The notes under the pieces are model-generated. The model made no database searches. It was not told the DNA's origin and worked only from the letters and a program-made list of their open reading frames with translations. DNA of 62,925 nucleotides, counting the filler. It is 3 parts of 3 records of this genome, joined end to end, with 100 filler letters (N's around TTAATTAATTAA, not from the genome) between each part and the next. Parts side by side here need not be neighbours in the genome. Positions count along the whole stretch, not along the records: positions 22,304 to 46,990 come from DRR723986_31525; 2 more parts are not named here. One strand, 5' to 3'. Made by a program: the position numbers and the translations under genes. Positions 82 through 56,693 of the stretch are shown here, one piece after another (the stretch's first letter is position 1; each line of letters starts with the position of its first letter).

Positions 82-116
82 AAAAAGGGCAGAACCATAA
101 ATTCTGCCCTTTTTTT
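82..116. terminator. Intrinsic terminator-like hairpin
   Basis: AAAAAGGGCAGAA-ccataaa-TTCTGCCCTTTTTTT inverted repeat with T-tract. Confidence 0.75.
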
Positions 117-22203: not shown

Positions 22204-22303
22204 NNNNNNNNNNNNNNNNNNNNNNNNNNNNNNNNNNNNNNNNNNNNTTAATTAATTAANNNNNNNNNNNNNNNNNNNNNNNNNNNNNNNNNNNNNNNNN
22301 NNN
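22204..22303. other. Assembly gap with TTAATTAATTAA contig linker
   Basis: N-runs flanking a 12-mer (22248-22259) that has stops in all frames. Confidence 0.95.
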
Positions 22304-22355
22304 CCGACCAGATAAGCAAAGAATCTAAGGCACCTGGCATCATTGCGGATAATCA
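22304..22355 (-). repeat. Partial copy of dispersed ~110-nt element (copy A)
   Basis: CCGACCAGATAAGCAAAGAATCTAAGGCACCTGGCATCATTGCGGATAATCA matches 44494-44545 and 47091-47116. Confidence 0.8.
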
Positions 22356-22574
22356 CATTATATTTTTAGCAAATATTGAGTTTAACTAGGGAATACAGCT
22401 TCCATAAAAATCTTCTGAATGTAAATCAAAGTATTAATTCCCCGTCAGCGCATATTGTTTAAAAAAGAGCCCATTAATTGAAGCGTATCTGCTTCTGAAA
22501 GTGATCTTAATGTAAGACTATCAATAGTTACTTTGCAAAACCTCAGCGAGTTACCACGGTAAATATTTTCATAA

Positions 22575-41466: not shown

Positions 41467-44289
41467 ATGAATATTAAAACCAAAATTCTCCAAAGTATTT
41501 TCCTACTTCAAGCTTTACTTTTTTCGCTTTGTTCAGTGGCTCAAACTGACTGGCTAATAGATAATAGCTCTTATACTGCCAAACTAATTGAGTCAGGTGA
41601 TAGGCTTGAGCTTTCTAATGGTTTGGTGAAGCGTGTGATCAAAATCTCCCCAAACGCAGCAACTATCAGCTTGGACAATTTATACAGTGGAGAGTCATTT
41701 TTAAGAGGGGTAAAGCCCGAAGCTGAAATAACAATAGACGGAGTTAACTATGAAGTAGGTGGCTTAAAGGGACAGCCTAATTATGCATTTCTAAAGAAAG
41801 AATGGATAGCTGATCTCAGCAATAATTCTACTGCAATGCAATTCTCTGGATACGAAATTTTAGATACTGAAATGCCATTTGAATGGGCGAAAATTAGATA
41901 TGGGGATCATAATGCTCCTTGGCCTCCAAAGGGTATTCACCTTCGATTGGATTTTGATCTACCAGAAACCAATCAACTGTTACTTTCCGCCAGCCCTTTA
42001 CCAAGTGATTTGGGGAGGAAAACTATTTATGAAACTAATTTCAATAGTTTGGATAAAGGCTGGACTAGGTATGAATCTACTTCTCATGCTAGATCCTCCT
42101 TCGAAAATGAAGGAAAATTAGGAGAGATCTATACGCTACAAAATTCATCTGTCTATGTAGAGCGAAAGATAGACCAAAGTACAAGAATTATAGAGGCGAC
42201 TTTCAATACAGGAACTGATCAAGCAGAGGAATTTGGACCAGGAATCAGCTTAGTTTGGGCTGATAAAACTATCAAATTTTATTTAAGGCCAGGTGATAAT
42301 TCATATGACGATGGGATTCCCATGTTTGGGCTTTGGGATGGAGAAAAGCATATCCAAGCTGCTGGAGGAAGATCTACACAAGGTATATCTACTGCTTGGT
42401 CACTTCGCTTTAGAATAACTGATGAAGCGGTTTTTTGCGAAGCTAAACCCAAAAAAGGCGATTGGTTAACTATAGGGGAATTACCTGCTTTCTCTACCTC
42501 ACCGATGAGTGTGCGTATTGGAAAAACCAATGGAAGTGGTGAAGGGAAGGATGATAAAGAATTAGGCGAATTAGTTCGACTGCAGGTGGTTGACTTCGCT
42601 TTGTATGGGGACATTGACACCACTATTGTACCTAAATTACAACCTGGAGATTTGACAGTTTCGGTACATTATGAGTTATATGATGGTATTCCGGTTTTTG
42701 GGAAATGGATTTCAGTCAAAAATTCGAGTGGAAAAACAATAAATATTGGAGATTTTACCAGCGAAATAATTGCAGCTGTGGAGTACGAATCCCTAGTGGA
42801 AATGCGTGAAAACACCGTTTTCCACGAGCCTAATATCCATGTGGAAACTGACTTTGCTTTTTCTAGTATGACGGCCAGAGACGCCAATTCTCATGTAGTA
42901 AAATGGCTACCAGACCCAGAATACAGTAGTCAGGTAAATTACCTCAGGCAGACTCCAGCATTGCTAAAGGTAAGCCCTGAATTTGGTCCAGATCAAGACT
43001 TAAAGTCAGGAGATGAATTCACCTCCTTCCGAACTTTTGTATTGCCTCATGACAGCTATGAAAGAGAGAGGCAAGGTTTGGCGCTGCGCAAAATGTATAA
43101 AACGCTGGCGCCTTGGACTACCGAAAACCCATTGATGATGCATGCCAGGTTTGCGGATTGGGAAGGAGTTAAAAATGCGATTGACCAAGCTTCAGAGGTA
43201 GGTTTTGAAATGGTAATTCTGACATTCGGTAGTGGCTTTAACATTGAAGACGATAGTGATGAATACCTTGCGGAAATGAAGAGGTATGCGGATTACGCCA
43301 AGGGAAAAGGCGTGGAGATTGGTGGTTATTCTTTACTTGCTTCACGAAGCATAGATGCGGAAACTGATGTGGTTATGCCTGAAGGAAAGCGCCCAACTTT
43401 TGGGAATTCCCCATGCATAGGAAGTGATTGGGGACAGGAATATTTCCAAAAACTCTACAATTTTTATGAGAAATCGGGCTTCACACTTTTGGAACATGAC
43501 GGCTCCTATCCTGGAGATATTTGTATATCTGAAGATCATCCCGGACATAAAGGACTGGCAGATAGTAGATGGAATCAATATCAAGTCATTTCCGACTTCT
43601 ATAAATGGAGCCGTGGAAAAGGAATTTATCTCAATATTCCGGATTATTATTTCATGACTGGTGGTAGTAAAATTGCCATGGGATATCGGGAGGTGAATTG
43701 GAGCCTGCCGAGAAACGAACAGTTGATTCATGCCCGTCAGAATATCTTTGACGGCACTTGGGAGAAAACGTCAACAATGGGATGGATGTTTGTACCCTTG
43801 ACAGAATACCAAGGCGGAGGAGCAGCTGCCACTATCGAACCTTTAAATGAGCATTTGGCACATTATGAAATGATGATAGCATCAAATCTTGGAGCTGGTG
43901 TACAAGCATGCTACCGAGGACCTAGGCTTTATGATACCGAGGAAACCAAAATGATGGTGAAAAAGAGAGTAGAATGGTATAAAAAGCATCGCGCTGTATT
44001 AGAAGGGGATATTATTCATTTGAAAAGAGCAAATGGTATCGACCTGGATTATTGGCTAAATGTAAATCCCTCTGGGGAGGAAAAAGGAATGTTGGCAGTG
44101 TATAATCCTACAGATCATGAAATCACAAAGAAGATTACAGTCCCCCTTTACTACGCTGGCTTGAGTGATAAAACCAAAATGATTGGGAGTGATGGTTCTG
44201 TAAAAGAACTAACTCTGAACAGAGAATACGAAGTTGAAGTTGAAGTGATTGTCCCAGCAAATGGAGATGCTTGGGTAATTTTTCAATAA
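41467..44289 (+). CDS. Secreted alpha-galactosidase-like glycoside hydrolase (GH36/clan-D-like)
   Basis: Signal peptide; TIM-barrel-like C-terminal half with GFEMVILTFGSG, EHDGSYPG, YREVNWSLPR; family assignment is tentative. Confidence 0.6.
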   Translation: MNIKTKILQSIFLLQALLFSLCSVAQTDWLIDNSSYTAKLIESGDRLELSNGLVKRVIKISPNAATISLDNLYSGESFLRGVKPEAEITIDGVNYEVGGLKGQPNYAFLKKEWIADLSNNSTAMQFSGYEILDTEMPFEWAKIRYGDHNAPWPPKGIHLRLDFDLPETNQLLLSASPLPSDLGRKTIYETNFNSLDKGWTRYESTSHARSSFENEGKLGEIYTLQNSSVYVERKIDQSTRIIEATFNTGTDQAEEFGPGISLVWADKTIKFYLRPGDNSYDDGIPMFGLWDGEKHIQAAGGRSTQGISTAWSLRFRITDEAVFCEAKPKKGDWLTIGELPAFSTSPMSVRIGKTNGSGEGKDDKELGELVRLQVVDFALYGDIDTTIVPKLQPGDLTVSVHYELYDGIPVFGKWISVKNSSGKTINIGDFTSEIIAAVEYESLVEMRENTVFHEPNIHVETDFAFSSMTARDANSHVVKWLPDPEYSSQVNYLRQTPALLKVSPEFGPDQDLKSGDEFTSFRTFVLPHDSYERERQGLALRKMYKTLAPWTTENPLMMHARFADWEGVKNAIDQASEVGFEMVILTFGSGFNIEDDSDEYLAEMKRYADYAKGKGVEIGGYSLLASRSIDAETDVVMPEGKRPTFGNSPCIGSDWGQEYFQKLYNFYEKSGFTLLEHDGSYPGDICISEDHPGHKGLADSRWNQYQVISDFYKWSRGKGIYLNIPDYYFMTGGSKIAMGYREVNWSLPRNEQLIHARQNIFDGTWEKTSTMGWMFVPLTEYQGGGAAATIEPLNEHLAHYEMMIASNLGAGVQACYRGPRLYDTEETKMMVKKRVEWYKKHRAVLEGDIIHLKRANGIDLDYWLNVNPSGEEKGMLAVYNPTDHEITKKITVPLYYAGLSDKTKMIGSDGSVKELTLNREYEVEVEVIVPANGDAWVIFQ

Positions 44290-44443
44290 TATTAGTAGAC
44301 TCCTTTAAAATAGAGTTGAACGGTTTAAAGAGACCAACTATAGTTTCAAACTTCCCTATTCTAGTTTTATAGTATATGCATATCCGCTATTGTGCCAGTA
44401 TGGAGTCAAAAGCGAAAAATGATATCTTAAACTTAAGAATTGG

Positions 44444-44545
44444 GGCCGCTTCAGCCTGTCCCACCAGTGCAGGAGTCATCGGTTATCGTTCTTCCGGCCA
44501 TATAAGCAAAGAATCTAAGGTGAATGGCACCATCGCGTATATTCA
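44444..44545 (-). ncRNA. Putative structured RNA, full copy of dispersed element (copy B)
   Basis: Shares GCTTCAGCCTGTCC..CCAGTGC.G.AGTCA with 55873-55906 and AGCAAAGAATCTAAGG..TGGCA.CAT.GCG.AT with 22304-22355. Confidence 0.55.
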
Positions 44546-44553
44546 TTGTATAA

Positions 44554-45995
44554 TTAGCTCTCATTGAACTTTTTCATCAATTGATAGGTAAACTGAATAA
44601 TTTCTTTGTAGTTCTCTTTTGATATTTTCTCATCAATTCCATGAAATCTTGTCATAGACTCTGAAGTAATACGGAGCGGGTAATATCTGTACACATCCTC
44701 AGAAATCTTATAAAAATATCGAGCGTCAGTTCCACCACCAATTAAACCAGGTACCACCACCGTTTCAGGAAAGACAGACCGAACTGTAGCTTCCAAAAGT
44801 TTATAGGAATCTGAATCAATTCGCGAAGAAGGGGATGGATTAGTTAAAAAGCCTGATTTCTCTACTCGAACTTTATCACTGATGGTACTCTCTATGTGTT
44901 TCTGAACCGACTCAATTGTTTCTCCCTGAAGAATTCTAAAATTGATAGTAGCCTCTGCAACTGTTGGAATCACATTATTTTTAACTCCTCCATCGATGAT
45001 AGTAGCAGCTGTGGTGGTATGTGAATTTAGCGCTTCCAAAATAGGCCCTTTCAATAGCCATAGATTAGCAAAGGCAACTTTCTGAGCAAAGGGCATCTCA
45101 GGACCTAAATATTCGAGTTGGTATCGAACAGGATCTACTAATCTGTATGGTCGTTGATTATTTTCTAAGTCTACAATAGCTTGAGCAAGCATACCAATCG
45201 TGTTCTCTCGTGGCGGAGCAGAACTATGACCTCCATTTGTCTCGACAATTAATCGAAAAGATGCAAATCCCTTTTCTGCAACATTGATCATAGATACAGG
45301 CTGATCAATTCCCGGAACCATTCCTTCAGCTATCATTCCTCCTTCATCTAGGGTGAAGGCAGCACGAATTCCTTTCTCTTCTAAATAATCGGCAATTTTA
45401 GCTGCACCATTTGTTCCACCAACTTCCTCATCGTGACCAAAAGCAAAATAAATCGTTTGGTTTGGGACAAAACCTTCTTTAATAAGTATCTCGGCGCTTT
45501 CTAATAAAGCAATAAGAGATGATTTGTCGTCCATAGTACCACGGCCAATAATATGATCTTCCGTGATTTTACCTTCAAATGGTCCCGCTTCCCACATATT
45601 TAATGTAGGCACATCTACCGGTACTACATCCTGATGTGACATCAAAATAATTGGTTTTTTGTAGGGTCAGCACCTTCCCAAGTATAAAGGAGGCTGTATT
45701 CACTGATTTTAGTAAGCGACATTGCCTCATGCACCAATGGGTAAGTTTCCGCCAAAAAAGCATGAAACCCGCTAAATGCTGCAGAATCAGGGATGGCCTC
45801 TTCACTGAAAGATATCGTCTTAAATCGTATGGCCTTCGATAAATTTTGAAAAGCATTTTCTGAAATTTCGACTACCTGAATAGGCTGTGGTTCTACCTGT
45901 TTAGACTCCATCCTAAGTGCATTGAAAATCAAAATGGCACCTAGAAGGATTACCAATACAAATAGTCCTAAAAATATTTTTCCGATTTTCTTCAT
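44554..45995 (-). pseudogene. M20 family peptidase (Gly-Xaa carboxypeptidase/PM20D1-like) split by a 1-nt frameshift
   Basis: Adding one T to the T6 run at 45655-45660 joins the two ORFs into ...GADPTKKPIILMSHQDVVP; GRGTMDDK, HDEE, DEGG, GGHSS, GGTD motifs. Confidence 0.85.
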
Positions 45996-46990: not shown

Positions 46991-47090
46991 NNNNNNNNNN
47001 NNNNNNNNNNNNNNNNNNNNNNNNNNNNNNNNNNTTAATTAATTAANNNNNNNNNNNNNNNNNNNNNNNNNNNNNNNNNNNNNNNNNNNN
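46991..47090. other. Assembly gap with TTAATTAATTAA contig linker
   Basis: N-runs around linker at 47035-47046. Confidence 0.95.
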
Positions 47091-47116
47091 GTGACTGGCA
47101 TCATTGCGGATAATCA
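47091..47116 (-). repeat. Partial copy of dispersed element (copy C)
   Basis: GTGACTGGCATCATTGCGGATAATCA; CTGGCATCATTGCGGATAATCA is identical to 22334-22355. Confidence 0.75.
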
Positions 47117-47153
47117 TAATTTTAATTTACCTTTATTCTTTATTTCAACACAA

Positions 47154-55645: not shown

Positions 55646-55872
55646 TTGAAAATTGGAAAAATAATGAGGGGCGAAATAAAAGGAAATTTCCGCTGATCGA
55701 AAAACTCTAAGAGTTATTAAAGAATTATCAAACGCATATCAGACAGTTTTTGTCGCTTTTAGCCATGGCTTCCCGTTTTAAAATCAACTGCTCTATCCCA
55801 TAATTTGAGTATCTGCTTTTCTGCAAGCAGAGAGACCAAAGCACTATAAGTATTGGTCAACACTATCGCTAA

Positions 55873-55972
55873 GGTCGCTTCAGCCTGTCCGCCAGTGCGG
55901 AAGTCACCCATCTTCGGTCACCTAACAGAATGAGCAAAGGGATTTTGGCTAAAGCCATCTTTTGGGGTATCG
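55873..55972 (-). ncRNA. Putative structured RNA, divergent copy of dispersed element (copy D)
   Basis: GGTCGCTTCAGCCTGTCCGCCAGTGCGGAAGTCA and AGCAAAG align with 44444-44511; located immediately 3' of a minus-strand stop codon. Confidence 0.5.
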
Positions 55973-55979
55973 ATATTTA

Positions 55980-56693
55980 TCAATGAACCGACTTCCTATC
56001 CACGATCACATGTGCATTTGGGTGAAGCCAGAGAACTGAAGCGGGAAGGTCTGTCCGGATTTTTCCTTCCATTAATAAATCCAAAGCCTGCTTTTTGCCC
56101 TTTCCAGTGATAAAGAGAATGACCATTTTCGAAGCCATAATATTTCCCACTCCCATTGTCATTCCTTGAGTTAAGGGAATTCCAACTTTCTCAATCATTC
56201 CACTCGCTAAAGTAACCGGATGCAAATTGGCTACATGGCAATCTGGTTGAAGATAATCTCCAGGCTCATTTAACGCGATGTGACCATTTATACCTATCCC
56301 CAGAATACAAATATCTATGCCAGTGAATTCAACAATTTTATCCTGGATCCTATCGCATTCTGACTCCGGGTCATCTGTTTCCACATCAAATGAGAAGTAT
56401 CTATCATCCTTTATCCCCAATTTTTTGACCAACTTCTCCTGAATATCATATTCGGAAGTAAATGTGGAATCCTTGGGCAATCCCACCCACTCATCGAGTT
56501 TGATCACATTCATCCAATCGAAAAAGCCAGGTGAATCGAGTTGTTTTTCCACCATCAATTCATACAATCCAGCGGGGGAATTTCCACTTGCTGCGCAAAA
56601 AAGCAAATCAGGATTGATCTCAACCTCTGCATGAACGAGCTCAGCTCCTAGCTGAGACATTTCTTGGTAGTTTTTGCAATTATGTAGCTTCAT
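55980..56693 (-). CDS. Glucosamine/galactosamine-6-phosphate isomerase family protein
   Basis: ASGNSP, LDEWVGL, LGIGINGHIALNEP, TMGVG.I, PASVL.LH. Confidence 0.88.
   Translation of the reverse strand: MKLHNCKNYQEMSQLGAELVHAEVEINPDLLFCAASGNSPAGLYELMVEKQLDSPGFFDWMNVIKLDEWVGLPKDSTFTSEYDIQEKLVKKLGIKDDRYFSFDVETDDPESECDRIQDKIVEFTGIDICILGIGINGHIALNEPGDYLQPDCHVANLHPVTLASGMIEKVGIPLTQGMTMGVGNIMASKMVILFITGKGKKQALDLLMEGKIRTDLPASVLWLHPNAHVIVDRKSVH

Follow-up and report, generated by a model that had tools for sequence, protein, structure and literature searches.

The window analysed here is a stretch of 62,925 nucleotides, in which runs of N with a central TTAATTAATTAA linker (22204-22303 and 46991-47090) mark separate contigs joined artificially. 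Within it, positions 44376-44546 on the minus strand hold a complete 171-nt repeat, copy B, read here as a miniature inverted-repeat transposable element (MITE). Its two ends form terminal inverted repeats (TIRs), for which the inverted-repeat finder reported arms of 22 nt at 44376-44397 and 44525-44546 with 82% complementarity; the arm at 44525-44546 matches that end of an insertion sequence (IS, described below) which bears the transposase stop codon. Outside the arms, copy B is flanked by decayed, AT-rich target-site duplications of 9-10 bp. A hairpin with an ACUG loop, UCCUGC-ACUG-GUGGGA, can be read from the sequence at 44459-44474 (minus strand), where it forms an optional, GC-rich central cassette. 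The sequence-only reading had described an element of about 110 nt at 44444-44545, which corresponds to the 5' 60% of copy B in minus-strand orientation. When the copies of G001, the nearest genome used for the family analysis (it shares 73% of sampled words), were aligned together with their flanks, the similarity extended about 60 nt beyond the 3' limit drawn by that reading and stopped abruptly at both ends. The copy boundaries given here are taken from this alignment and from the inverted-repeat finder, and they lengthen the element to about 171 nt.

Copy B lies beside an M20-type peptidase gene (44554-45995, minus strand), which in the window is split into ORFs of 363 and 117 aa overlapping near 45642-45645. 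The orthologous gene in G001 (L001 1625..3067) is a single ORF of 480 aa, and the split is either a frameshift or an assembly sequencing error.

A profile built iteratively from the repeat's own copies was used to search the window. All four copies listed by the sequence-only reading were recovered on the minus strand: copy B at 44546-44379 (E 3.9e-50), copy D at 55969-55809 (E 2.1e-29), copy A at 22355-22303 (E 3.1e-13) and copy C at 47117-47091 (E 4.2e-05). A fifth copy, absent from that list, matched on the plus strand at 1-57 (E 1.4e-10). Copy D (55805-55974, minus) is an old, strongly diverged MITE whose inverted repeats and target duplication have decayed, and the repeat finder reports no inverted repeat in it; its ortholog in G001 (L194) is 96.8% identical over 401 nt. 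Copy A (22304-22356, minus) is the 5' third of an element and copy C (47091-47117, minus) is its terminal 27 nt, the rest being cut off by a contig end in both cases; both match the TIR pattern as well as the profile, copy A with 0 mismatches. The fifth copy (1-59, plus) is the 3' third of an element truncated by the start of the window. Orthologous copies exist in G001 for all five: L001 for copy B, L194 for copy D, L035 (a hairpin-less copy) for copy A, L034 for copy C and L005 (full-length) for the fifth. Because copies A, C and 1-59 are cut at contig joins or at the window start, the shared orientation of the four listed copies, although correctly observed, carries no information across artificial joins. 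Repeats tend to fall at contig ends in short-read assemblies, and the position of three of the five MITE copies at contig ends explains the contig breaks in this assembly. Just after the 1-59 copy, at 85-115 (plus strand), there is a GC-rich stem-loop, GGGCAGAA...TTCTGCCC, which has a run of T's behind it and resembles an intrinsic terminator.

The family is far larger than the window suggests. A 131-nt query found 42 places in G001, and a 22-nt TIR pattern with up to 3 mismatches found 69 (36 forward and 33 reverse), compared with 0 for the reversed control. In the fetched loci the profile confirmed 71 unique G001 copies, and three found later bring the number to at least 74, dispersed over both strands and at least 10 contigs. 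Copies measured end to end span 129-193 bp with a median of 159, under the limit of about 500 bp used for MITEs. Over about 25 nt (reported range 22-25) their two ends are imperfect inverted repeats of one another, with the consensus ATGATTATCCGCAATGATGCCAGT ... ACTGG(T/C)A(G/C)AAAAGCGGATATACAT, the second end of which is also given as ACTGGyAsAAAAGCGGATATACAT. Some of the aligned copies have lost 7, 21 or 28 nt internally. Pairwise identity within G001 has a median of 77%, and nearest-neighbour identity has a median of 89% and a maximum of 98.5%; the family is old, with at least one young subfamily, and it includes a subfamily with 95-98% identity. A 63-aa ORF at 44376..44567 (plus strand) was considered as a coding reading of copy B and dismissed, since its start codon is the ATG at the end of the element and just 23 of 60 copies have a stop-free frame of any kind across the element. 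At one locus of another genome (L073, G074:C16:90043-90490) a second copy follows the first in head-to-tail order and starts within its end, where an N marks the junction; the pair stems either from nested or tandem insertion or from faulty assembly.

The centre of the element varies strongly. The hairpin is legible in copies B and D, and had been taken as conserved on that ground; it is deleted cleanly in about one quarter of the aligned G001 copies. The CAGGCUGAAGCG motif after the hairpin and the CUUUGCU upstream of it are likewise legible in both copies, yet the former, described as invariant, has variants across the family that include GAAGUG, CAGGCAG and GGAG. The centre also contains a 7-nt unit, GA(A/T)GACC, in one to three copies (e.g. 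window 44459-44495; L070-L089). The hairpin-less GATGACCGAAGACC is the most frequent centre, seen in 15 of the 135 distinct copies in the fetched loci taken together, and shorter one-unit forms also occur. Unrelated GC-rich palindromes of about 20 nt occupy the same central spot in other species, where TCCCGAGCTATCGGGA, CCTGCCCGAACTACAGGCGGGG or GCCTGCCTGCCGGCAGGCAGGG stand in place of the ACUG hairpin. At this variable position the ACUG hairpin is a dispensable cassette rather than the conserved functional core of the element. We also considered the hairpin as an independently dispersed unit in G001, and rejected this, as 30 of its 30 matches fall inside MITE copies.

Immediately outside many copies there is a direct repeat of about 10 AT-rich bases, for example ATTAAACAAT, TTAAATTAAT, AACTGAGATT, ATTCTATTAT and AAAGAATTTT. 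Among the 60 copies with both ends available, 32 (53%) match at 8 or more of the 10 flanking bases, 7 of them perfectly, and the remaining 28 match at fewer than 8. In a control of mismatched pairs (n=3540) only 2.3% reach 8/10, which argues against an artefact of AT-rich flanks. Identity between the two flanks is 0.6-0.83 at positions 1-9, 0.5 at position 10 and at background beyond, and the duplicated bases are 90% A+T. An empty site was found for one copy, L104, from a record titled Algoriphagus yeomjeoni DEN5. This copy is missing from G085 (C3, around 2010-2019), where its flanks (98% and 84% identical) lie directly side by side, with a 10-bp overlap in the search alignment. The sequence ATGCTTTAAA (about 10 bp) is present once at the empty site and on both sides of the L104 element, with 8/10 and 9/10 matches; this is a single filled/empty pair, and a 7-bp duplication would also be compatible with it. 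A second comparison, L101 against G085, led to a rearranged locus.

G001 also contains an IS with the same ends. At L047 300-1339 lies a 1040-bp element with one transposase gene and inverted-repeat ends, of which 22/24 bases match the ATGATTATCCGCAATGATGCCAGT end of the MITE and 20/26 match the other end. It is flanked by a 10-bp target duplication, AAAAGTTAAT, and is single-copy in G001. Its ORF (L047 307-1236, minus) is intact and encodes 310 aa, the last codons and the stop lying inside one inverted repeat. The protein matches the Pfam domain DDE_Tnp_IS1595 (PF12762, E 2.7e-22, 2-153/153) above Pfam's cut-off and the NCBIfam model transpos_IS1595 (NF033547, E 3.5e-58, 1-215/215), with an N-terminal Zn_ribbon_IS1595 (PF12760, E 6e-05) that remains sub-threshold at 23.4 vs 25.4 bits. 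Relatives of the IS encode proteins 92-98% identical in G083, G080 and G085 and 63% identical in G089, and those at L090 and L092 (G083 and G089) have like ends and duplications of 9-10 bp. This IS fits the description of the IS1595 family in PMC8101967 in its single transposase ORF, its DDE domain, its N-terminal zinc ribbon (just below the Pfam cut-off) and its inverted-repeat ends. The MITE differs from the family in that it is itself non-coding. The family is described as usually flanked by 8-bp duplications, a usual and not a defining feature (PMC8101967), compared with 10 bp at L047 and 9-10 bp at L090, L092 and the MITE.

Taken together, the repeat is very probably a MITE, that is, a non-coding element bounded by TIRs. 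A small mobile element had been the last option named in the sequence-only reading, and it is the one borne out, by directly observed TIRs, target duplications, a copy number of at least 74, ends common to an intact IS, and one filled/empty pair. Mobilisation in trans by an IS1595-family element is the most likely explanation of its spread. The DDE transposase of such an IS, encoded elsewhere in the genome, would bind the inverted repeats of the MITE and insert it into AT-rich intergenic DNA, and the insertion would duplicate 9-10 bp of target. That the transposase at L047 is the mobiliser, and that the move follows this chemistry, is what we infer from the ends, since only the terminal 24-26 nt are common to the two elements and the MITE interior (about 120 nt) is unrelated to that of the IS. 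The two do not always occur together: MITE matches without a transposase match at E <= 1e-20 are seen in G096 and G062, and the IS without a MITE match in G083 and G080.

Bacterial MITEs are non-autonomous derivatives or partners of insertion sequences, and the Correia elements of Neisseria and RUP of Streptococcus pneumoniae are examples. The present family resembles them in being small and non-coding, in its TIRs and target duplications, in its dozens of intergenic copies, in ends shared with an IS and in presence/absence polymorphism. It differs from them in sequence family, in host (Algoriphagus-titled records), in the family of the partner IS, in its AT-rich duplications of 9-10 bp and in its variable centre, where GA(A/T)GACC is repeated one to three times and alternative palindromes occur. 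It is thus an undescribed MITE family paired with an IS1595-family IS, and ordinary selfish DNA whose only textbook departure is the length of its duplication.

The alternative favoured by the sequence-only reading was that the element, or many of its copies, acts as a structured minus-strand RNA in which the ACUG hairpin and the closing helix would be functional. It would stabilise a 3' UTR, serve as a processing element or be a small RNA (a ribozyme had also been suggested). Several observations are in keeping with such an RNA. Copies B and D had been placed within about 10 nt of an upstream minus-strand stop codon, and they indeed begin 7 nt (ORF 44554..45645) and 5 nt (ORF 55980..56693) after one. 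More generally, copies tend to sit directly 3' of genes: at the G001 loci L001-L067, a copy lies at most 25 nt from 25 of 62 neighbouring gene 3' ends, compared with 9 of 58 gene 5' ends, and the median distance is 52.5 nt to 3' ends vs 107 nt to 5' ends, genes being called crudely as the longest ORFs of at least 90 aa. Orientation relative to these genes, on the other hand, is random (28 copies in the same direction as the upstream gene and 22 in the opposite, p 0.48; 36 vs 34 for the downstream gene). The scan of the whole window against Rfam at the gathering score gave 0 matches, so that the family comparison proposed as a check produced no hit, and a permissive scan of 44380-44600 with E values up to 10 gave just chance-level matches to 6A, Zeta-pan, sR24 and Fluoride (E 2.9-8.8). 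With MFE z-scores against shuffles of -0.36 (minus strand) and +0.05 (plus strand), the fold of copy B is not more stable than shuffled sequence. A scan of 44250-44700 found 0 terminator-like sites, and a sigma-70 scan of the same region found 4 promoter-like sites vs 1.8 expected, under a model that does not cover Bacteroidota promoters.

The copies were also compared with one another. RNAalifold on 32 full-length copies gave a consensus energy of -0.89 kcal/mol with a covariation term of +0.05, which amounts to no consensus structure. For the pair test we named a structure of two terminal helices and three hairpins, 29 pairs in all, and evaluated it over 32 sequences. Its covariation score was 0.106 compared with 0.100 in shuffled controls (reached by 67 of 500 shuffles), and pairs changed on both sides numbered 4 compared with 3.4 (226 of 500), so the covariation proposed as a further check does not rise above the controls. 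Only the share of paired cells, 88.3% vs 87.5%, exceeded most shuffles (5 of 500 reach it), a hint of an RNA layer, and the 88.3% reflects sequence conservation. The G-U wobbles of copy B had been read as favouring the minus strand; over all named helices in that orientation G-U cells do outnumber A-C cells (196 vs 107), but the excess is driven by four subfamily-defining sites, and in the ACUG hairpin itself the family-wide counts are 17 and 16. Folding energy also leans a little towards the orientation of that reading, which is the better one for 25 of 31 copies (mean -45.0 vs -41.7 kcal/mol). One hairpin closing pair changes from C-G to U-A in 5 copies, but it does so as a single three-base haplotype common to all 5, which suggests descent over repeated compensation. 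With the hairpin lost from so many G001 copies and replaced by different palindromes, or by none, in other species, a structured minus-strand RNA finds no support in the Rfam, folding, covariation, orientation and hairpin-loss results combined, and we regard it as improbable.

Two further explanations are more doubtful still. REP/BIME-type extragenic palindromes, spread by a RAYT (Y1, IS200/IS605-like) transposase, are also intergenic, numerous and rich in GC-rich hairpins, and they too often lie just after genes. REPs, however, are not known to carry terminal inverted repeats or target duplications, whereas the copies here have 25-bp TIRs and 9-10-bp duplications, their ends match a DDE-type IS1595-family element, and their hairpin is dispensable, which leaves this reading with hardly any probability. 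The copies could otherwise be simple internal-deletion derivatives of the present IS, i.e. fresh solo remnants, as the ends and the duplication length common to IS and MITE would allow. But the interior of about 120 nt bears no resemblance to that of the IS, and the family is old and diverse, with a median identity of 77% and subfamilies, while the same MITE interior is nevertheless common to several species; we consider such an origin extremely unlikely.

The preferred reading, a MITE mobilised in trans, also matches how the family is distributed. Of 41 sampled genomes of the genus, 12 contain matches, and restricting the sample to the 23 of good quality leaves 10. In a sample of the taxonomic family with one genome per genus, 1 of 61 has a match, namely G001. 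An exact 26-nt pattern was found in 65 stretches across 185,579 species genomes, 64 of them in records titled Algoriphagus, and the family is found almost solely in this genus. The sole exact-pattern match outside such records is L127, a 9.7-kb contig titled MAG: Owenweeksia sp., which might be due to inter-genus transfer or to misbinning. Among the papers listed in a literature search, none linked Algoriphagus with MITEs.

With these results, one candidate for a new ncRNA or ribozyme falls away. For Algoriphagus genomics, they provide instead an unannotated repeat family of about 74 copies in G001 together with its likely IS1595-family driver, and the copies are usable as strain markers. Given how frequently they are inserted within 25 nt of stop codons, the copies may also affect neighbouring genes.

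A broader possibility concerns the variable centre, which might be a landing pad or hot spot for unrelated short GC-rich palindromes that come and go, CCGATAGCTATCGG among them. Because insertions favour the stretch 0-25 nt behind a stop codon, copies with a hairpin might in some cases have been co-opted as RNA 3'-end modules. We consider this combined proposal unlikely, if somewhat less so than the structured-RNA reading of the whole element; if it were true, the variable centre and the dispersed palindrome CCGATAGCTATCGG would be signs of a distinct and very small mobile palindrome or of a hairpin-generating repair process. As to CCGATAGCTATCGG itself, this 14-nt perfect palindrome may be an independent mini palindromic insert. 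G085 and G074 have 25 occurrences each, G001 and G096 have 3 each, and the reversed control has 0; the window itself does not contain it. Among the 21 sites that were read (within L172-L191), 9 lie directly before an ATG in a single conserved setting that resembles a 5' UTR, and the palindrome is also found in the centre of one MITE (L184) and within MITE inverted repeats (L185, L189 and L078).
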